From assembly GCA_012518645.1 (NCBI GenBank), contig JAAYRS010000124.1, positions 1 to 45,784 of the forward strand: 45,784 nt of DNA, read 5' to 3'. The first letter of the stretch is position 1; each line of letters opens with the position of its first letter. The translations under genes and the position numbers were made by a program. The DNA is from Bacillota bacterium (GTDB taxonomy: Bacteria > Bacillota > Limnochordia > Darwinibacteriales > Darwinibacteriaceae). Positions 1,673 through 10,304 of the stretch are shown here, piece after piece. The notes under the pieces were generated by a model. That model did not search any database. It saw only the letters and a list, made by a program, of their open reading frames with translations, and was not told where the DNA came from.

Positions 1673-3634
1673 ATGATTGGCGAAGTCTTAATCGATCGCT
1701 ATGAAATTTTAAAAAAGGTAGGGGCCGGCGGCATGGCGCTGGTTTACAGCGCTAAGGATCATCTTTTAAACAGGACGGTGGCTGTAAAGATCCTTCGGGA
1801 ACAGTTTGCCGGGGACGAAGAATTCGTGGAGCGTTTTCGGCGGGAAGCCAGATCTGCAGCCAGCCTATCTCACCCTAATATAGTGAACATATACGATGTG
1901 GGCCAAACAGGAAATATTCACTTTATTGTTATGGAATACGTACAAGGGCAGAGCTTGGGGCACTTGATCAAGAGCAACAAAAAGTTTTCTCAAAAATTTA
2001 TTGTCAGCGTAGGCCGACAAATTGCCCTGGGCTTAGGACACGCCCACTATCACGGCATCATCCACCGAGATATCAAACCTCATAATATTTTGATTACGGA
2101 AGAAGAAAGGGTTAAAGTAACCGATTTTGGCATTGCCCAGGCTATGTCCGGGACGGAACTAACCCAAACCGGCATGGTTTTGGGATCAGTCCACTATTTT
2201 TCGCCGGAGCAGGCCCGGGGTATCAATGTGGGTACTGCCAGCGATTTGTATTCTTTAGGCATTGTGCTTTATGAACTAATCACGGGGAAACAGCCCTTCC
2301 GGGGCAATTCTCCAATTTCCATTGCCTTAAAACAGATTCAAGAAACACCTGCCCCGCCTTCAAGTTTTGTTGATGATCTAGATCAAGAGCTAGAGAAATT
2401 GGTTTTGGATCTGTTGTCCAAAGATGCGGCCCAGAGGCCCTCCGGTGCAGAAGAAGTTGCCAGTGTTTTCCGCAGGATTGAACGAAGATTGGATTACGAT
2501 TTAGATCTAGAAAATGTTGCTGATCAAGAAGTTTCCCCTCTGCCGAGGGCTTGGAAAGGGGTTTTTGGATTGGCCCGGCCGAAAAAGAAGAAAAACGAAA
2601 GGAAGAAAAAGAAAGCCGCTGCCCGGGGAAAATCCCGGCGGGGTTTGGTAGTTTTTCTTTTAATAGTGTTGGTCTTAAGCGGAGTTGGCTTTGCCCTGAA
2701 CCGTATTATCCCTAAAATTTTATTTCTAGATGATGTGCCGGTGCCTGATATTGTCGGCCTGCCCGAAGAGGAAGGGTTTAGTGTTTTAAAGAGCCATAAT
2801 TTAATCTTAAACGTAACCCAAAGGGTTTTTGACAACGAAAAACCCTTGGGATATATTATAAGCCAGGAACCTTTAGCGGGGCGGATGGTCAAAGAAAACC
2901 GGCAGATTTCAGTTAGGGTCAGCAGAGGGCCGGAAGAAATAGAAATGCCTAGCGTTCTTGGTGTATCCGCTCGGGAAGCGAGACTGAATCTGACCCAGAC
3001 CGGTTTTGTCCTGGGCAGCGAAACTGAGATATTTGAACCGAGCGTAGCCCCCGGCACCGTTTTGGAGCAATGGCCTGAGCCAGGCGGGATTGCAGTGAAA
3101 GGTACAGAAGTGAATCTTGTGATAAGCAAGGATCAGGAGACAGTCGTCTCTATCCCTCTGCCTGATTTTACCGGCCGGGATTTTTCAGAAGTGCAGACCC
3201 TTTTGGAAGGGCTGGGGCTTAAAGTGGGCAACTCTTGGCCTGAGTACAGCATGGTCTATCGGGAGGGCCAGGTTATAGAGCATAACCCCGCGGCCGGAAC
3301 AGAGGTGCAGCTGGGTTGGACCGTTGACTTTGTCTATTCCCAGGGTGTTCCCCATGTCCCCTCGCCGCCGCAAACAGCACGAGAACCTAAGCAGGAGCCG
3401 CTGATGGAGGAGAATTCTTGGCAGTCGCGGGAAATTGTGGTTGATGTACCCGATGGGCCTCCGCAGGAAGTTGTGATTTTAGTGATCGACGATTTCGGGG
3501 CCCGGGAAGTATATCGCGATACCCATAAAGGAGGGAGCCGTGTGGTCCGTTCAGTGCAGGGCCGGGGGGAAGAAGCCAAAATGCAAGTGTACATTGGGGC
3601 TCGGCAATTCTTGGATCGGTACTTTCGGGACTAA
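1673..3634 (+). CDS. prkC: Ser/Thr protein kinase with extracellular PASTA repeats
   Basis: Hanks kinase motifs are present: GAGGMALVY, VAVKIL, HRDIKPHNIL, DFGIA, SPEQARG. A Lys-rich linker and one TM segment (LVVFLLIVLVLSGVGFAL) follow, then three repeats of the form P.v.G....A...L...G and a C-terminal domain. Confidence 0.9.
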   Translation: MIGEVLIDRYEILKKVGAGGMALVYSAKDHLLNRTVAVKILREQFAGDEEFVERFRREARSAASLSHPNIVNIYDVGQTGNIHFIVMEYVQGQSLGHLIKSNKKFSQKFIVSVGRQIALGLGHAHYHGIIHRDIKPHNILITEEERVKVTDFGIAQAMSGTELTQTGMVLGSVHYFSPEQARGINVGTASDLYSLGIVLYELITGKQPFRGNSPISIALKQIQETPAPPSSFVDDLDQELEKLVLDLLSKDAAQRPSGAEEVASVFRRIERRLDYDLDLENVADQEVSPLPRAWKGVFGLARPKKKKNERKKKKAAARGKSRRGLVVFLLIVLVLSGVGFALNRIIPKILFLDDVPVPDIVGLPEEEGFSVLKSHNLILNVTQRVFDNEKPLGYIISQEPLAGRMVKENRQISVRVSRGPEEIEMPSVLGVSAREARLNLTQTGFVLGSETEIFEPSVAPGTVLEQWPEPGGIAVKGTEVNLVISKDQETVVSIPLPDFTGRDFSEVQTLLEGLGLKVGNSWPEYSMVYREGQVIEHNPAAGTEVQLGWTVDFVYSQGVPHVPSPPQTAREPKQEPLMEENSWQSREIVVDVPDGPPQEVVILVIDDFGAREVYRDTHKGGSRVVRSVQGRGEEAKMQVYIGARQFLDRYFRD

Positions 3635-3637
3635 ACT

Positions 3638-4501
3638 ATGGAAAAAGGTATTATCCTTAAAGGTGTAGGCGGAATCTATAAGGTGCAGACAGAACAGGGA
3701 CTCGTTCCCTGTACTTTGCGGGGCAGGCTGCGCTTGGAAGAAAAACGGATTGTGGTTGGGGATCGGGTTGAGATTTCCCGCCAGGAATCGGGGGGTGTTG
3801 TAGAGAGGATCCTGCCGCGCCGAACCGAACTGCAGCGGCCAGCCATTGCCAACGTGGAACAGGTTGTAGTTGTCTTCGCCGTTAGAAAACCGGAGCCAAA
3901 TCTGCTCCTTTTGGATCGCATCTTAGTTAATGCCCAGTTAGCGAAGATCCGTTCGATATTGGTTCTGAACAAAGAAGATTTAGACCAAAAGCGGGCCCGG
4001 GAATTGCAGGAGATTTATAAGAGTATTTCTTACCCTGTTTTGATCACAAGTGCTAAAAAGAGGAAAGGTTTGGCAGAACTGGGGCAGCTTTTCCCAGGTA
4101 AAATCAGTACCTTGGCAGGCCCCAGCGGTGTGGGCAAATCCTCTCTCTTGAACGCATTGAATCCTGGGCTGGATTTGGAAATCAAAGAAGTAAGTATGCG
4201 GGCAGAAAGGGGCAGGCACACCACTAGAACGGTCCATTTAATGCCGCTGAACGAAGGGCTGGTAGCGGATACCCCCGGATTTTCCCAACTGACCGTTGAT
4301 CTAAGCGAGAAAGCTGAATTACAATTCGCCTTCCCGGAAATGGCGGCTTTAGCCGGACAGTGCCGATTCAGGGGCTGTTTGCATCATCGGGAACCGGGTT
4401 GTGCAATTAAAGAAGCTGTGCGGTCTGGTGAGATTTTCAATCACCGCTATAACCATTACATAGTGTTCTTAGAGGAAGTACAAGCAATTCCTAATTATTA
4501 A
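3638..4501 (+). CDS. rsgA: ribosome small-subunit-dependent GTPase A
   Basis: Circularly permuted GTPase: NKEDL precedes the P-loop GPSGVGKSSLLNAL. Zinc cluster CRFRGCLHHREPGC. Conserved position after prkC. Confidence 0.9.
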   Translation: MEKGIILKGVGGIYKVQTEQGLVPCTLRGRLRLEEKRIVVGDRVEISRQESGGVVERILPRRTELQRPAIANVEQVVVVFAVRKPEPNLLLLDRILVNAQLAKIRSILVLNKEDLDQKRARELQEIYKSISYPVLITSAKKRKGLAELGQLFPGKISTLAGPSGVGKSSLLNALNPGLDLEIKEVSMRAERGRHTTRTVHLMPLNEGLVADTPGFSQLTVDLSEKAELQFAFPEMAALAGQCRFRGCLHHREPGCAIKEAVRSGEIFNHRYNHYIVFLEEVQAIPNY

Positions 4502-4506
4502 ATGAG

Positions 4507-5166
4507 GTGATTTTGATTAAACGTAGGATTAGTACATCGATTTTAGCCGCGGATTTCAGCAAATTAGAACAGGAACTAAGACGGGTTTCCGCTTCGGATC
4601 TACTCCATCTTGATGTTATGGACGGGATCTTTGTGCCTAATATCAGTTTTGGTATACCCGTGATTGAAGCGGTCAGCTCCGTTTCCCAACTGCCTTTGGA
4701 CATTCACTTGATGATTAGGGAGCCCTCCCGGTTTATAGGAGACTTTGCCCGCTTTAAACCGGAGTTTATAACAGTTCATTATGAGTCTGTCACTCATTTG
4801 CAGCGCGTTTTAAGACAAATTAAAGATTTGGGTATTAAAACGGGCCTGGCTTTAAACCCCCACACGCCTTTGGAAGGCCTTCGCTATGTGCTTGATGATT
4901 TGGATCTTGTACTGCTGATGACTGTAAACCCAGGTTACGGAGGGCAGAAGTTTATTCCGGCTATGGTTCAAAAAATTAAAGAATGCAGCCGAATTTTAGA
5001 AGGAAGGCCCATTGAGCTTCAAGTCGACGGAGGAATTAGCATCGATAACGTGGCGGCTTTAGCCCAGGCGGGGGCTAACAATTTTGTGGCCGGTTCCGCT
5101 ATTTTCCAGGCCGCAGAACCCAACCTTTATATCGAAGAAATGCGTTCAGTGAAAAGTGCCTCTTGA
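4507..5166 (+). CDS. rpe: ribulose-phosphate 3-epimerase
   Basis: Motifs ILAADFSKL, LHLDVMDG, DIHLM, VNPGYGGQKF, VDGGI. The start could be GTG 4507 or TTG 4513 and is uncertain by 6 nt. Confidence 0.9.
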   Translation: MILIKRRISTSILAADFSKLEQELRRVSASDLLHLDVMDGIFVPNISFGIPVIEAVSSVSQLPLDIHLMIREPSRFIGDFARFKPEFITVHYESVTHLQRVLRQIKDLGIKTGLALNPHTPLEGLRYVLDDLDLVLLMTVNPGYGGQKFIPAMVQKIKECSRILEGRPIELQVDGGISIDNVAALAQAGANNFVAGSAIFQAAEPNLYIEEMRSVKSAS

Positions 5167-5322
5167 TCCAAAGGATAAAATTCGGGGGAAGGCTAACGCC
5201 TTTCCTCAAATCTATTTATAGGGCGTTTTTATGGCCGGAGCAGTTCAAATCTTCTTTTGGCAGGGAATATAGGAGCTGGATAAAATTTTTTCCGTAAATC
5301 ACGAAATAGTTGCATTTGGGGC

Positions 5323-5351
5323 TTGACAAGTCTGATAATTGGATGTAATAT
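5323..5351 (+). promoter_or_regulatory. sigma-A promoter of sRNA copy 1
   Basis: TTGACA (5323-5328), 17-nt spacer, TAATAT (5346-5351). The flanks are shared with copies 2 and 3 (AAATAGTTnCATTTnGGGCTTGACAAnTCTGATAATT). Confidence 0.7.
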
Positions 5352-5357
5352 AGAATC

Positions 5358-5527
5358 AAGCCGACACACAGTGCAAGCTGTTCCGAAAAAAGACCGGAGC
5401 AGCAGTCCTTAAAAGCGCTCCCTGAGCAGTTATACCGTGAAAGTGGGCATAGAACGGTGAGACGGTGTTGTGTGAAGGCTAAAGATCAAAAAGCATCCTG
5501 AGGGGAAGGGATGCTTTTTGATCTTTT
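5358..5527 (+). ncRNA. unassigned structured small RNA, paralog 1 of 3 (about 170 nt)
   Basis: No ORF. The 5' strand 5360-5374 pairs with the 3' strand 5464-5479 (closing helix). Hairpin GCUGUUCCG/CGGAGCAGC lies at 5377-5403. Conserved UCCCUGAGC at 5419-5427. The terminator follows immediately: AAAGATCAAAAAGCATCC, loop, GGATGCTTTTTGATCTTTT (5481-5527). Ends are inferred from the promoter and terminator, not mapped. Confidence 0.6.
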
Positions 5528-5708
5528 AAATCTTTTTGGCGGGTCTTAGTTAAAAGTTTAACACAAGAGATAGCTAATCCGCCGCGGCTGAAATAGAAAA
5601 CACATTCTAGTACCTTTAAAAACATAGTGTAATTGGGAAATGTACCCCTGTCTTAATACTCGTACGCTCTGTATTTCTTAAAAAGGACAAAATAGTTACA
5701 TTTAGGGC

Positions 5709-5737
5709 TTGACAAATCTGATAATTAGGTGTAATAT
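5709..5737 (+). promoter_or_regulatory. sigma-A promoter of sRNA copy 2
   Basis: TTGACA (5709-5714), 17-nt spacer, TAATAT (5732-5737). Same flanking sequence as copy 1. Confidence 0.7.
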
Positions 5738-5743
5738 AAAATC

Positions 5744-5910
5744 AAGCCAATTCACAATGCAAATAACTCCGGGCGAAAGGGAAGCCGGAGTAACACAAGC
5801 TTTCCCTGAGCGACCGCACGCTGAGAACGGACTAGAAACGGTTGAATGGCATTGTGACGGCTAAAGATCAAAAAGCACCCCGTCTTCTAGGGTGCTTTTT
5901 GACTTTTTTG
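5744..5910 (+). ncRNA. unassigned structured small RNA, paralog 2 of 3 (about 167 nt)
   Basis: Closing helix UCACAAUGC (within 5746-5760) pairs perfectly with GCAUUGUGA (within 5849-5861), using a different sequence from copy 1. Hairpin ACUCCGG/CCGGAGU. UCCCUGAGC at 5803-5811. Terminator TCAAAAAGCACCC, loop, GGGTGCTTTTTGA plus a T-run (5866-5910). Confidence 0.6.
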
Positions 5911-6084
5911 ATCGGAAATCACCGCCAATTCTGTACTTAAATTCTTAGTATAATTATTTTTGAAAGGCTTAGTCGGTACGAATTTGTCAGATCAACGCTT
6001 AGAAGCATAAAGGTTGGGATGATGAGGCAATACTCTATCGGCAAGGCCATCAGAATATTTGTTTTTAATAGTTAGATATAGGGC

Positions 6085-6113
6085 TTGACAAATCTGATAA
6101 TTGGATGTATTAT
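6085..6113 (+). promoter_or_regulatory. sigma-A promoter of sRNA copy 3
   Basis: TTGACA (6085-6090), 17-nt spacer, TATTAT (6108-6113). Same flanking sequence as copies 1 and 2. Confidence 0.7.
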
Positions 6114-6119
6114 AGACTC

Positions 6120-6323
6120 AAGCCGACACACAGTGCAAGGAGCTGGAGAAAGGAGGTTACTTAAAAGACTTTTTGCCTAACGATTACTCACAAAAAAAAA
6201 TAATAGAATCCCTGGGCATGAGGCAAGGCAAAGAATCTAAATCGGACAGGAAGACATAAAGAAACATTGTGTGGAGGCGGAACATTAAAAAGCATCCTAA
6301 GCGAAAAGGATGCTTTTTAATTT
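6120..6323 (+). ncRNA. unassigned small RNA, paralog 3 of 3 (about 200 nt, divergent core)
   Basis: Its 5' end AAGCCGACACACAGTGCAAG is identical to copy 1, and a matching 3' strand ACATTGTGTGGAGGC is present. UCCCUGGGC at 6209-6217. Terminator ATTAAAAAGCATCC, loop, GGATGCTTTTTAAT (6284-6323). The interior is not alignable to copies 1 and 2. Confidence 0.5.
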
Positions 6324-6432
6324 GCGCCGGAAGGCTTATTCTTCTCAGCGCGCGGCAACGCGGCCTTTTGACAAATTTAAAGAAGGGATCTTTTGGTTCT
6401 TGGCGAATTGACAGGATAACAACGAAATAGTT

Positions 6433-6556
6433 CCGCTAGGGGTGCTTGAGGCTGAGATAGGATTGTAATCATCCTAACCCTTAGAACCTGTTGGATAATG
6501 CCAGCGTAGGGAAGCGGTGAAGTTGAAACATGGGCCGCTTGCTCCATGTTTTTTTA
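6433..6556 (+). promoter_or_regulatory. TPP (THI-box) riboswitch with terminator-type expression platform
   Basis: Aptamer 6433-6517 carries the hallmark blocks CUAGGGGUGC, GCUGAGA, ACCCUUAGAACCUG and GGAUAAUGCCAGCGUAGGGAA, closed by P1 CCGCU/AGCGG. Hairpin AAACATGG, loop, CCATGTTT plus T5 lies at 6526-6556. It sits directly upstream of thiT. Confidence 0.9.
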
Positions 6557-6609
6557 TTGCCGAAGTATTCAGTGCGGATCTATCGTTAGTTTTTTAGGAG
6601 GTAGATTTA

Positions 6610-7131
6610 GTGCGCAGTCGAAACCTTGTTATTATGTTGGAAACGTCGCTTTTGGTGGCCGCAGCTTTACTTTTATCCCTTTTAAGGCTTTGGAGGATGC
6701 CCCAGGGCGGGGGTGTTACTTTAGAAATGCTGCCCATTTTCATCCTGGCCTTCCGCCGGGGCGGTAAAGTAGGAGTTACAGGGGGTGCCCTGCTGGGGGT
6801 GCTGAAATTACTCCTTTCTCCCTACATTCTCCACCCTGTACAAGTCTTATTAGATTACCCCGTGCCCTTCGCGGTGCTGGGTGTAGCCGGGTTCGGCATC
6901 TTGCGGGAACGCCGCATCCTGGGGATTTTTGTGGGAACCTTGCTGAGATATGTCACCCACGTAATTGCGGGGGTGGCCTTCTTTGCGGAATATGCCCCGG
7001 AAGGTACTTCTCCTTTGGTCTATTCCGTAACTTATAACCTTCCTTATCTTATAGCTCAAGTTATTTTGGTTTTAATTGTAATTCAACTTCTAAGCCAACG
7101 GAGGGAGATTTTTGAACCTGAAAAAGAATAA
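6610..7131 (+). CDS. thiT: thiamine transporter ThiT (ECF S-component type)
   Basis: GTG start 8 nt after the TAGGAGG SD. A 173-aa polytopic membrane protein with the ThiT-like N-terminus (LVIMLETSLLVAAALLLS...MPQGGGVTLEMLPI). Placed behind a TPP riboswitch. Confidence 0.75.
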   Translation: MRSRNLVIMLETSLLVAAALLLSLLRLWRMPQGGGVTLEMLPIFILAFRRGGKVGVTGGALLGVLKLLLSPYILHPVQVLLDYPVPFAVLGVAGFGILRERRILGIFVGTLLRYVTHVIAGVAFFAEYAPEGTSPLVYSVTYNLPYLIAQVILVLIVIQLLSQRREIFEPEKE

Positions 7132-7756
7132 ACGGGTTCTTCTTTTAGGGACCGGAGAGGACATTCCCCCGAAATGTCCCTGCCCAGGAGACGATTTTTT
7201 GCTTATTTGCGCCGATGGGGGTGCGGATCTAGCGCTAAAATGGAATTTGCGGCCTGATCTAATTATTGGAGATCAGGACTCTTTGAGTACTCAAAGTTTG
7301 CAGTATTGGCAGGGAGAAGGTGTGCCGGTGCAGAAACATCCCACCCAGAAAGATAAAACGGATCTTGAATTAGCTGTGGATTTTGCCCTGGGGCTGGACC
7401 CGCTATCCCTTACATTGGCGGGAGCATGGGGAAACAGGATTGATCACAGTTTAGGAAATTTAGAGATACTTTACAACTTGGCCCGTTTAGGGGTTTCAAA
7501 CGAGCTTGTAACTAGCGGGAACCGCTTAATCGCTTTCCAGAAGGAATACAGGGGAGAAGTTAAGACGGGCAGTACTGTCTCCCTTCTGCCTTTAAGCACT
7601 AAGGCAGAAGGGGTTTACACTGAAGGGCTGTTTTATTCCCTGGCGGATTCAACTTTAGTTAGGGGGACGACTTTAGGAATTAGTAATCGGGCTTTGGAAG
7701 ATAAAATTTATATTCGTTTAAGCCGGGGTGTTCTTTTAGTTGTCCTGGGGCAATAA
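7112..7756 (+). CDS. thiN: thiamine pyrophosphokinase
   Basis: Motifs ICADGGA, IGDQDS, DKTDLELA, RIDHSLGN. TTG start after a GGAGGGAG SD, overlapping the end of thiT by 20 nt. Confidence 0.85.
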   Translation: MNLKKNKRVLLLGTGEDIPPKCPCPGDDFLLICADGGADLALKWNLRPDLIIGDQDSLSTQSLQYWQGEGVPVQKHPTQKDKTDLELAVDFALGLDPLSLTLAGAWGNRIDHSLGNLEILYNLARLGVSNELVTSGNRLIAFQKEYRGEVKTGSTVSLLPLSTKAEGVYTEGLFYSLADSTLVRGTTLGISNRALEDKIYIRLSRGVLLVVLGQ

Positions 7757-7793
7757 AATACCCCTAGGAGGAGTTGACAACCACCTTAGGGGC
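7754..7793 (-). terminator. putative intrinsic terminator downstream of rpmB (minus strand)
   Basis: Arms CCCCTAGG (7761-7768) and CTTAGGGG (7785-7792) pair with one G-U. On the minus strand the hairpin is followed by UAUUUU. The loop is large (16 nt). Confidence 0.45.
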
Positions 7794-7856
7794 AGTAAAG
7801 AACTTAGACTTGCCAGTAAGATCTAGCAAAGGATTTTTGAATCGATAAGGCAGCTT

Positions 7857-8048
7857 TTAAAAAGCCCGTTCCACTTTTCCGCTTTTTAAACATCGCGTGC
7901 AGACATAAGCCCGCTGTGGGCTGCCTTTAATTAAAACCCGTGTTTTTTGCAAATTTGGTTTCCAAGCCCGGCGATTTTTATTTAAGGCACGGCTTCTCCG
8001 GTTACCGGCTAGACTGCCTTTATCGCAAATGACGCATCTTCTGGCCAT
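7857..8048 (-). CDS. rpmB: 50S ribosomal protein L28
   Basis: MARRCVICDKGSLAGNRRSRALNKNRRAWKPNLQK... is the canonical L28 sequence pattern. SD GGGGGGT upstream. Confidence 0.95.
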   Translation of the reverse strand: MARRCVICDKGSLAGNRRSRALNKNRRAWKPNLQKTRVLIKGSPQRAYVCTRCLKSGKVERAF

Positions 8049-8089
8049 AGTTCTTACCCCCCTTAAACAAGTGCTTAATCACGATTTTC

Positions 8090-8118
8090 ATTTTAGCATA
8101 GGGGTGCTCGGAATGCAA
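8090..8118 (-). promoter_or_regulatory. putative sigma-A promoter of rpmB
   Basis: On the minus strand: TTGCAT, 17-nt spacer, TAAAAT, with TG at the extended -10 position (TGCTAAAAT). Confidence 0.5.
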
Positions 8119-8143
8119 GCAGGAATCAGCCCGGATAAAATCC

Positions 8144-8172
8144 TTTACAATTAGACCCTGAATGGGTAGAAT
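8144..8172 (+). promoter_or_regulatory. putative sigma-A promoter of the asp23/yloV operon
   Basis: TTTACA (8144-8149), 17-nt spacer, TAGAAT (8167-8172). Confidence 0.45.
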
Positions 8173-8226
8173 GATAATGATAGAAGAACGGTCCAATCTG
8201 GCAACGTCTGCAAAGGGGGGACAATT

Positions 8227-8598
8227 GTGACCCAAGGTACACAATCTGAATTGGGAAAGATTAAAATCAGAGAAGAAGTTATTGCTACTGTTTGTGGTGT
8301 TTCAGCCATGGAATGTTATGGCTTAGTGGGAATGGCGCCCCGTAATGTTCAAGAAGGGTTAACCGATTTATTGCGTCGGGAAAACTTTGAAAAAGGGGTG
8401 GATGTTCAGTTTAATAATGAAAATAGCATTAGTGTTCAGCTTTACATAGTGGTTGAATACGGTGTTAAGATATCCGAGGTGGCTAAAAACGTTCAGGAGC
8501 GTGTTAAATTCGCTGTCGAAAGTTTACTGGGCCTGGAGGTTGATTGCATTAATGTTAAGGTGCAGGGCGTGCGGGTCACCGGGGCGAAGAGAAAGTGA
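8227..8598 (+). CDS. Asp23/Gls24-family envelope stress protein (YloU-like)
   Basis: GKIKIREEVIATVCGVSAMECYGLVGM is typical of the Asp23 family. It has the conserved partner position before the DAK2 protein. GTG start. Confidence 0.8.
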   Translation: MTQGTQSELGKIKIREEVIATVCGVSAMECYGLVGMAPRNVQEGLTDLLRRENFEKGVDVQFNNENSISVQLYIVVEYGVKISEVAKNVQERVKFAVESLLGLEVDCINVKVQGVRVTGAKRK

Positions 8599-10304
8599 GT
8601 GGAGGAACAGTCTTGGAAGTAATTACTGGTTTGACTTTAAAAAACATGTTGCTGGCGGCTTCTTACCAGCTTGACCAGGAAAAAGATTTTGTCAATGCAC
8701 TAAACGTATTCCCGGTACCTGATGGTGATACCGGGACTAATATGTCCTTGACTATGGAGGCTGCCCTTAAAGAGGTGGAAAAATCCACAGAGGATGATAT
8801 CAGCCAAATCACATCTCTTTTGGCCAACGGATCTCTAATGGGTGCCCGCGGCAATAGTGGGGTTATCCTTTCCCAGTTCTTCCGGGGTTTTGCCGCCGGG
8901 TTGACTAAAAACAAAACTACCGCCAGCGGAAAAGATTTGGCCCGCGCATTTCTGGAATCTACCAAAACGACTTATCGGGCGGTAATGAAACCTGTGGAAG
9001 GCACCATGCTGACGGTAGGGCGTTTAGCCGCGGATGGTGCCGCGCTGGCGGCAGAGGAAGGAGCAGGTGCCGGCCAGGTTCTAAAAGCAGCTTTGGCCGC
9101 GGCCCTGGAGGCTTTGGAAAACACGCCTAATATTCTGCCTGTTTTGAAAGAAGCGGGGGTTGTGGATGCAGGCGGTCAGGGTTTGGTCTGTATTTTTCAG
9201 GGTTTTGTAGCCGGCTTGGAAATGGATAGACGCGAACTTGAATCTTTCTTTGGAAAGCCCGTGGAAAAACAGGTTTTAAAAGAAGCGGCCGCCCCTCCGG
9301 ACGAAACTTTAGAGAACAAATACTGTACAGAATTTATTATTCTCGGTGCAAACATAGACCAAGAAATGATCAAAAGCGAATTGGAATCTAAGGGCGACTC
9401 CATGATCGTTGTAGGTGATCCGAATGTAATTAAGGTGCATCTGCATACTGATGTCCCCGGCGATGTCCTTCAGTTTTGCGCCGGCCTGGGGGAATTAACG
9501 GAAATTGCCATTGATAACATGCTTTTGCAAAGGCAGGAATATAGCAGGGGGCAAAACGGCAGTCACGAGCACAGCCACCGCTTGGATTTTTCGGATCAGC
9601 CTGAACCGGAACGGGAATTGTCGTTAATTGTCAATCCCCAGGCTGTTAAAGGGGTGGGGCTGGTGGCCGTTGTACCCGGGAAGGGTTTGGCGGAGATATT
9701 CTCCAGTCTTGGGGTAGAGTGTATCGTTCCCGGGGGACAAACCATGAATCCCAGTACAGAAGATCTAGTTAAAGCGATCAACACTGTTAATGCTGAATCG
9801 GTGATAATTTTACCAAATAATAAAAACGTGATTTTTTCTGCTCAGCAGGCAAAAGAATTGGTGGACAAAAAAGTCGGCGTGGTGCCAACCCGATCCGTCC
9901 CGCAAGGGATCAGTGCTTTACTGTATTTTGCCCCTGATCAAACTTTGGAAGACAACCTTGCTGCCATGGACGGCGGCCGAAAAGAGGTACAGACGGGGGA
10001 GATTACTTTTGCCACCCGTTCTACCGTTGCCGGTGATTTGCAAATTGAGGAACGGGATATTATTGGTTTGGTGGAAGGAAAAATTGCTGCTGTTGGCTCA
10101 GATCCAGAAGAAGTTGCCGTCAATATTTTGGAAAACATGGTAAATGAAGAGTCTTCGGTAATCAGCATTTACTACGGGGCCGATGAAAAAGAAGAAGCGG
10201 CCCAGAAGTTAAGCGAGCGTGCAAAAGATAAATACCCGCAATGTGAAGTAGAGATGTACAGCGGAGGGCAACCGCTCTACTACTACATTTTGTCCGTGGA
10301 ATAG
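8595..10304 (+). CDS. DAK2 domain fusion protein (YloV-like)
   Basis: DAK2 signature PVPDGDTGTNM. 569 aa with an N-terminal DAK2 domain and a C-terminal DegV-like/uncharacterised domain. GTGA overlap with the upstream gene. Confidence 0.85.
   Translation: MSGGTVLEVITGLTLKNMLLAASYQLDQEKDFVNALNVFPVPDGDTGTNMSLTMEAALKEVEKSTEDDISQITSLLANGSLMGARGNSGVILSQFFRGFAAGLTKNKTTASGKDLARAFLESTKTTYRAVMKPVEGTMLTVGRLAADGAALAAEEGAGAGQVLKAALAAALEALENTPNILPVLKEAGVVDAGGQGLVCIFQGFVAGLEMDRRELESFFGKPVEKQVLKEAAAPPDETLENKYCTEFIILGANIDQEMIKSELESKGDSMIVVGDPNVIKVHLHTDVPGDVLQFCAGLGELTEIAIDNMLLQRQEYSRGQNGSHEHSHRLDFSDQPEPERELSLIVNPQAVKGVGLVAVVPGKGLAEIFSSLGVECIVPGGQTMNPSTEDLVKAINTVNAESVIILPNNKNVIFSAQQAKELVDKKVGVVPTRSVPQGISALLYFAPDQTLEDNLAAMDGGRKEVQTGEITFATRSTVAGDLQIEERDIIGLVEGKIAAVGSDPEEVAVNILENMVNEESSVISIYYGADEKEEAAQKLSERAKDKYPQCEVEMYSGGQPLYYYILSVE

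Follow-up and report, generated by a model that had tools for sequence, protein, structure and literature searches.

A previously uncatalogued, clade-restricted family of structured small RNAs with three tandem members between rpe and a TPP riboswitch in a Bacillota genome

Duplicated genes for small regulatory RNAs (sRNAs), with near-identical promoters and seeds on divergent scaffolds, are familiar from PrrF1/PrrF2, Qrr1-5 and OmrA/B, and C-rich seeds directed against Shine-Dalgarno (SD) sequences from RoxS/RsaE and the staphylococcal UCCC-motif Rsa RNAs. In Listeria monocytogenes, LhrC1-5 are multicopy sRNAs of ~110 nt, several of them encoded side by side; every copy has a promoter and a terminator of its own, and all are induced together. 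Their C/U-rich UCCC motifs, found in loops, in single-stranded stretches and in the terminator, bind the AG-rich SD sequences of target mRNAs, and the copies act additively (PMC6794450). In the STAB-SD element of the Bacillus thuringiensis cry3A mRNA, a non-initiating SD binds the 3' end of 16S rRNA, and the bound 30S subunit blocks decay by RNase J1 (PMC4113751). Here we analyse a 45,784-nt (45.8-kb) stretch of Bacillota DNA (assembly GCA_012518645.1, contig JAAYRS010000124.1; hereafter the window) in which positions 5303-6322, between rpe and a thiamine pyrophosphate (TPP) riboswitch, consist of three promoter-RNA-terminator units. The RNAs belong to a previously uncatalogued, clade-restricted family of structured small RNAs, a new family of a known kind rather than a new kind of system, and by analogy LhrC1-5 would be their closest functional counterpart. 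To our knowledge essentially nothing is known of RNA regulation in this uncultured group of anaerobic-digester Bacillota, to which the present work adds a covariation-supported, uncatalogued RNA family.

An RNA gene lies between rpe and the TPP riboswitch-thiT in all 17 of the related species examined (Rpe 57-70% identical), whose loci, numbered here with the prefix L, were gathered by exact-protein look-ups, a scan of species-representative genomes and a DNA-pattern scan of metagenomes; in every one the RNA gene is accompanied by the same promoter motif or a variant of it. The Rpe of the window lacks any close relative: its best matches are 69-70% identical, several of them named 'Limnochordia bacterium', and the clade that carries the family probably lies within the Limnochordia of the Bacillota. 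When 14 species are aligned by covariance model, two-sided changes are seen in each of the 12 pairs of the helix that joins the 5' and 3' ends of the RNA (the closing helix), and 92% of the cells are paired, values reached by none of 500 shuffles; when the partner strand is slid out of register, 31-44% are paired. Applied to eight Bacillota loci from outside the clade, the covariance model returned only a spurious match (E=0.41). The first-pass annotation of this stretch had proposed that the units are independently transcribed, paralogous structured noncoding RNAs selected for their RNA product. That proposal is supported by the 17 species gathered, by the covarying closing helix and by the pattern of retention among the units described below, with transcription as such a step that we infer.

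No described family accounts for these RNAs. At gathering thresholds, the 4227 models of Rfam 15 (which include TPP, 6S, SRP, RNase P, tmRNA, LhrC, RsaE/RoxS, T-box and riboswitches) gave a single match in the window, the TPP riboswitch itself at 6428-6529; a relaxed scan of 5150-6420 yielded terminator-driven matches only, at 10-23 bits against thresholds of 40-382; no family matched the RNA genes of seven related loci; and ARAGORN found no tRNA or tmRNA gene in the whole window. The array itself is present at 99.9% identity on contigs of five other, independent metagenome assemblies, which rules out an assembly artefact. The assemblies differ only by two single-nucleotide polymorphisms in the spacer that separates units 2 and 3, at 6021 and 6050, and the matching contigs come from biogas and fermentation metagenomes.

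Within the window, much of the architecture first described was recovered as claimed: three tandem units with -35 boxes at 5323, 5709 and 6085, spaced 386 and 376 nt apart; a shared upstream block and near-consensus promoter in each; an RNA that begins with AAGCC and whose 3' strand pairs back to that end; an unpaired block identical in copies 1 and 2; a strong terminator immediately behind the RNA, which folding bears out; and spacers that cannot be aligned, in contrast to the preserved promoters, RNA ends and terminators. All features are on the forward strand. AAGCC forms the predicted 5' start of all three RNAs, ~7 nt past the -10 box. The core of the unit 1 RNA (5358-5480, predicted start ~5358) is closed by 5359-5362/5477-5480 and 5365-5374/5465-5474, that is, by AGCC/GGCU and CACACAGUGC/GUGUUGUGUG, and folding places internal hairpins at 5377-5385/5395-5403 and 5433-5438/5454-5459. 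That of unit 2 (5744-5862) is closed by 5745-5748/5859-5862 and 5752-5760/5849-5857, the second part reading UCACAAUGC/GCAUUGUGA, and has a hairpin at 5766-5772/5785-5791, with a loop, GCGAAAGGGAAG, potentially able to pair to the C/U-rich block described below. The unit 3 core (6120-6279) is closed by 6122-6124/6276-6278 and 6127-6135/6265-6273, the second part being CACACAGUG/CAUUGUGUG; it contains GAUUACUCAC at 6182-6191, followed by an A-rich linker, and CAUAAAGAAAC before the 3' strand. Against shuffled sequences the folding z-scores of units 1, 2 and 3 are -7.3, -5.3 and -5.4. The closing helix and the first hairpin had both been said to survive changes in sequence. This stands for the first hairpin, in which three pairs are altered on both sides, but the closing helices of the window copies differ by one-sided changes only (wobble to Watson-Crick) with no double compensatory change, and the covariation of this helix comes from the other species.

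The three RNAs are paralogous but not equivalent. The covariance model used for the comparison of units was built from the 14 species, describes the closing helix, GAAAGGAGG, GAUCACC with the A-rich linker, UCCCUGGGC and CCAUARAGAAA, and was run with filters off. Its best match in the window is unit 3 (6122-6278; 19.1 bits, E=0.024), in an alignment that covers the SD block, UCAC with the A-run, CCUGGGCA and CAUAAAGAAA. Unit 3 also adjoins the thiT promoter, as does the RNA of single-copy species, and because of both its top match and this position we regard it as the divergent orthologue. Units 1 and 2 share with it the promoter, the first 22 nt (91% identity between units 1 and 3, 73% between units 2 and 3), the closing helix, the C/U-rich block and the terminator, and have neither SD block nor GAUCACC nor A-rich linker. 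The RNA bodies are 45-60% identical from unit to unit, and for the inter-unit spacers alignment is no better than for shuffled sequence. Judged from such similarities, units 1 and 2 are shortened local paralogues of the RNA of the unit 3 lineage.

Their shortness, and the fact that the model does not detect them, could also suggest that units 1 and 2 came from unit 3 by a recent tandem duplication and are now decaying without a function; alternatively the region, in which open reading frames (ORFs) of 31-51 codons occur, might encode small proteins. We consider this pair of explanations very unlikely. Although the spacers have been randomised, identity between the promoters is still 84-88%, their -35 and -10 boxes are intact, the closing helices are still paired through one-sided changes, the terminators are still strong, and an independent three-unit array exists in another species (L105). 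As for small proteins, the longest ORF (51 codons) has its start within a -35 box, the species share neither ORF nor frame nor start codon, and the RNA genes of four species (L011, L012, L095 and L099) contain no ORF of at least 10 aa. The first claims, of no ORF and no known RNA family, hold in that no ORF is conserved in this comparison and the Rfam scan gave no confident match to the units. The most inviting coding candidate was an SD followed by a 31-aa ORF with a GTG start in L006, in a frame in which three species read UCC-CUG-GGC; we set it aside because of an in-frame stop in L010, a frame that shifts with the length of the A-run linker, and the four species without an ORF. A small-protein gene or type I toxin was likewise rejected, as starts and frames differ among species.

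Each unit appears to be read from a strong promoter of its own. The promoter block of unit 1 (5303-5357) comprises an upstream A/T block, a -35 box TTGACA (5323-5328), the spacer AGTCTGATAATT and a TG-extended -10 box TAATAT (5346-5351); those of unit 2 (5689-5743; -35 at 5709-5714, -10 TAATAT at 5732-5737) and unit 3 (6065-6119; -35 at 6085-6090, -10 TATTAT at 6108-6113) are 84-88% identical to it and to each other over 56 nt. All three predicted promoters have TTGACA, a 17-nt spacer and a TG-extended -10 box, and match 10-11 of the 12 sigma-70 consensus positions. Against an expectation of 0.12, the window contains three occurrences of the 18-nt promoter motif TTGACANNTCWGAYAATT, one per unit and none elsewhere, and the form TTGACAnnTCWGAYAATT carried by all three units is found at the rpe-thiT site in the loci of 15 other species, with variants in the remaining ones. 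Across 25 promoters, which align without gaps, the spacer positions T-C-n-G-A-n-A-A-T-T (TCnGAnAATT) are at least 90% conserved. Such conservation is unusual for the spacer of a sigma-70 promoter and suggests an operator; a near-invariant spacer across the interval between the -35 and -10 boxes would most simply be the binding site of one shared regulator, by which the copies would be switched together. As a probable operator, the spacer offers a handle on the regulator and its regulon. It fits none of what we take to be the consensus sites of Fur, PerR, Zur, CtsR, PhoP, WalR, ArgR and Spo0A. The right half of the spacer matches the CodY box at 12 of 15 positions in L016, L017 and L104 and at 10 of 15 in the window, a stringency at which chance matches are not rare, so that CodY as regulator of these RNA genes would be only a lead.

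The upstream part of the promoter block is conserved as well, at 5303-5322, 5689-5708 and 6065-6084 of the window (AATAGTTnCATTT) and, between -70 and -40, as AATTRT..CAAAAARTA in relatives; in several species it holds AATTATC, the inverted complement of the GATAATT found ~40 bp downstream in the spacer. It may serve as an UP element or supply a further half-site of the operator.

Directly behind each core lies a predicted intrinsic terminator with a stem of 15-19 bp and a U tract. In unit 1 (5481-5530) the stem is of 19 bp (5481-5499/5508-5526) and its 5' arm holds GCAUCCUG, as the arm often does across the family; in unit 2 (5863-5911) it is formed by 5863-5866/5903-5906 and 5868-5880/5890-5902; and in unit 3 (6284-6322) it is of 15 bp (6284-6298/6307-6321). 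The GCAUCCUG of the arm, kept in many species, resembles the internal AUCCCUGG block. The hairpins (5481-5526, 5863-5906, 6284-6321) are also near-perfect palindromes between an A-run and a U-run, and as such would stop transcription from either direction.

A helix junction closed by a P1-like helix with an intrinsic terminator directly behind it is also the layout of terminating riboswitches such as TPP, and the first-pass annotation had called the units riboswitch-like. The layout is as described, yet the resemblance is superficial. Orphan ligand-sensing aptamers, acting on thiT-thiN in tandem with the TPP riboswitch or else in trans, would account for the junction, for its conserved nucleotides and for the constant position of the RNA immediately upstream of the TPP riboswitch-thiT. 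Such an aptamer would however be expected to control its terminator, and in 14 of 15 RNAs the 5' arm of the terminator pairs with upstream RNA no more strongly than its shuffled versions do, the best duplexes reaching -5 to -15 kcal/mol against -11 to -27 kcal/mol for the terminator hairpins. A promoter-like motif, RNAGGnnTT-N11-RNNGAAD, is moreover found at 6381-6408 of the window (AGAAGGGATC ... GGCGAAT), ~20 nt upstream of the TPP aptamer, and at the same place and fixed distance from the aptamer in L006-L017 and L093-L105 (strict in 15 of 21 loci, near-matches otherwise). It resembles what we take to be the sigma-H consensus, and the thiT-thiN operon may be driven by an alternative sigma factor. 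Because every species has this conserved predicted promoter downstream of the RNA terminator and ahead of the TPP aptamer, the thiT operon has its own start; units 1 and 2 each precede another promoter, unit 3 and its orthologues precede the sigma-H-like promoter and then the TPP riboswitch, and with a promoter for each unit the downstream units bypass the upstream ones. The interior of the RNA also varies greatly, both in length (~120 to 500 nt) and through gain and loss of helices, and matches no Rfam riboswitch. Without an antiterminator, and with a separate thiT promoter, the RNAs are not riboswitches, and we hold the aptamer explanation to be highly improbable; compared with terminating riboswitches they lack an antiterminator, a gene in the same transcription unit and a well-conserved interior.

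What the family does conserve inside the closing helix is above all a C/U-rich block. It reads UCCCUGAGC at 5419-5427 in unit 1, where it is the proposed seed, and at 5803-5811 in unit 2, which is the identity between copies 1 and 2 noted above, and UCCCUGGGC at 6209-6217 in unit 3, where it contains CC.UGGGC. The latter string is invariant across 15 aligned family members, a YUCCCUGGGC block is present in most related species, and the form in units 1 and 2 differs from it by one G-to-A change. The block is the most conserved element across species, lies unpaired or in the loop of a weak hairpin, and is the sole internal element kept by the shortened units. Retention of promoter, closing helix, C/U block and terminator in the trimmed copies, together with an unpaired block that is also the best conserved, is the signature of the seed of a trans-acting sRNA, and the parts that survive in the shortened paralogues (closing helix, C/U block and terminator) point at the functional core.

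Unit 3 and most of its orthologues have further conserved segments. At 6148-6156, ~29 nt from the predicted 5' end, unit 3 carries an SD block, GAAAGGAGG, that is the exact complement of the 16S rRNA 3' end CCUCCUUUC and is followed by no start codon; in most species it is kept in this ORF-less form, embedded in the purine block ACAUAAGAAAGGAGG. GAUCACC, a string that also occurs in the 3' tail of 16S rRNA, and then the A-rich linker are conserved in the family, as is CCAUARAGAAA just before the 3' strand of the closing helix. A family hairpin CUUCGC/GCGAAG shows a few compensatory variants, and other hairpins vary in number and length between species. Pairing of the SD block with GAUCACC (GGAGG/UCACC with an A.A mismatch) is possible, with one or two informative changes only. 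An intramolecular SD/anti-SD pairing of GGAGG with the CCUCC of the core was rejected: the SD block is invariant, its partner varies (AUCC, CUCC, UUCC), and there is no covariation.

The reading that we favour, to which we give about even chances, is that the units encode stand-alone, co-regulated sibling sRNAs whose C/U block would pair with purine-rich ribosome-binding sites. A single ancestral RNA gene between rpe and the TPP riboswitch-thiT-thiN would have given rise to three genes by local tandem duplication, each copy read from its own strong sigma-A-type promoter and all switched jointly through a common operator. Each RNA would be clamped by the closing helix and ended by its strong intrinsic terminator. 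The seed (YUCCCUGGGC in unit 3 and the other species, UCCCUGAGC in units 1 and 2) would pair in trans with an SD-like 5'-GCYCAGGGA-3' of target mRNAs and so block translation or alter stability; a second, similar element, GCAUCCUG, is situated in the terminator arm and loop. The SD of unit 3 may dock the 30S subunit and shield the RNA from 5'-to-3' decay in a STAB-SD-like manner, or may mask the seed; its loss from units 1 and 2 points to amplification of dosage, diversification of targets (the G-to-A change in the seed), or both. We infer transcription, base pairing in trans, the regulator and the targets of these sibling RNAs from the DNA.

Several observations weigh against this reading. 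The promoters, the 5' ends and termination are all predicted. No target was found, and the window holds 15 complements of the seed where 13.4 would be expected, which is no enrichment. Pairing of the seed with the adjacent TPP leader is recurrent (UCCCUG/UAGGGA) but lies within 1-2 standard deviations of shuffled seeds. The family covariance model does not detect units 1 and 2, whose homology rests on similarity within the window. A hairpin that presents CUGGGC is found in only ~12 of 23 cores and is absent from the window copies; its stems covary in some species (AUCC/GGAU, AAAUCC/GGAUUU, CCUCC/GGAGG), but with that incidence we rejected it as a universal feature. Finally, junction segments other than the seed are conserved across species (ACAUAAGAAAGGAGG, GAUCACC and CCAUAGAGAAA), a pattern seen more typically in RNAs that adopt a tertiary structure or engage a protein than in sRNAs that simply base-pair.

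This last point raises the possibility, which we think unlikely, that the RNA instead binds a protein or the ribosome, either by docking the 30S subunit through its SD or by using junction and loops as a protein platform (a sponge or decoy), whose titration capacity tandem copies would raise. An exact 16S complement kept without a start codon in most species, a 16S-tail-like GAUCACC conserved nearby with which it may pair, several junction segments conserved in sequence, and a very strong, tightly conserved promoter suggestive of high abundance would all suit such a role. But units 1 and 2 retain intact promoters, closing helix and terminator without SD, GAUCACC or A-rich linker, so these elements must be dispensable for at least some function; covariation between SD and GAUCACC is weak, both strands being mostly invariant as judged by eye; and no candidate protein partner is encoded nearby. 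Still less probable, in our estimate, is a new class of ribosome- or protein-engaging RNA, abundant and tightly regulated, that would dock the 30S subunit via the ORF-less SD beside GAUCACC and present CUGGGC to a partner; if true, such an RNA could tune translation initiation globally or sense a cellular signal.

Alternatively the RNA product could be irrelevant, and the units could act only in cis, insulating or modulating the thiT promoter (through interference or supercoiling) or bounding the 3' end of rpe and the 5' end of thiT. Synteny with rpe and TPP-thiT is strict in every species found, and the terminators are very strong and partly bidirectional. That synteny, however, belongs to a narrow clade that keeps the whole order pknB-rsgA-rpe-thiT-thiN-rpmB, rpe already has a terminator of its own at 5184-5207, and selection on the RNA itself is evident from the covariation of the closing helix and the invariance of the internal 9-mer. 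We regard a purely cis-acting role as most improbable.

As sibling sRNAs, the window RNAs resemble LhrC in their three tandem copies, common promoter, UCCC-containing block and second UCC element in the terminator; several copies are each equipped with a predicted promoter and a predicted Rho-independent terminator. They differ in that there is no homology of sequence or structure and no Rfam match, in being longer (~165-205 nt) and having a long 5'/3' closing helix, in the perfect ORF-less SD and other conserved junction segments of the ancestral form, and in their host, an uncultured Limnochordia-like member of the Bacillota. Nor are they homologous to PrrF, Qrr, OmrA/B, RoxS or the Rsa RNAs, and their seed is a longer invariant 9-10-mer (YUCCCUGGGC) rather than a short CCCC or UCCC loop. 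The likeness to STAB-SD, drawn from sequence, is that GAAAGGAGG lies without a start codon some 30 nt into the predicted RNA in unit 3 and in most orthologues; here the element is part of a noncoding RNA and not of an mRNA leader, and among the three units only unit 3 has such a 16S-complementary, non-initiating sequence near its 5' end. It nevertheless provides a chance to test stabilisation of the STAB-SD type outside Bacillus. Most unusual, in our view, are the operator-like invariant spacer, the perfect ORF-less SD block and the repeated independent amplification.

The family has been amplified more than once. A single ancestral gene gave rise to three tandem genes in each of two lineages and, in a third, to a long RNA with an internal duplication, so that the family illustrates cleanly how sRNA genes are amplified in nature. 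L105 (GCA_040364275.1, contig JBEFFB010022894.1) has its own three-unit array at 3678-4292, between rpe and the TPP riboswitch, in which the features of the family are split: the middle unit has a UUCCCUGGGU block and the last unit a AAGAAAGGAGA block. The deeper-branching L016 (4727-5150), L017 (4721-5180) and L104 (3721-4281) have a single RNA of 450-560 nt with a long closing helix that includes GAAAGGGG and with two to three copies of ACCRUCUCCCUYGGG, an internal duplication and not tandem genes; in L016 and L017 there is no obvious terminator. L102 has a direct repeat of 2 x ~33 nt (..AAUUACGUAAUACCUCCAACUU..) at ~3880-3945, between closing helix and terminator.

The array is flanked by rpe (4507-5166), with its terminator at 5184-5207, and, ~100 nt downstream, by the TPP riboswitch (6428-6529; 72.7 bits, Rfam 15), after which come thiT (6610-7131) and then thiN. 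Complementarity of the seed to thiT codons (CCCCAGGG, Pro-Gln-Gly) was considered as a candidate and dropped, as it is not conserved. The gene order at 1673-10304 of the window is pknB-rsgA-rpe-[RNAs]-TPP-thiT-thiN-rpmB(-)-asp23-DAK2/fakA, which presumably matches that of the Bacillus prkC-cpgA-rpe-thiN-(spoVM)-rpmB region, with thiT and the RNA genes inserted here after rpe.

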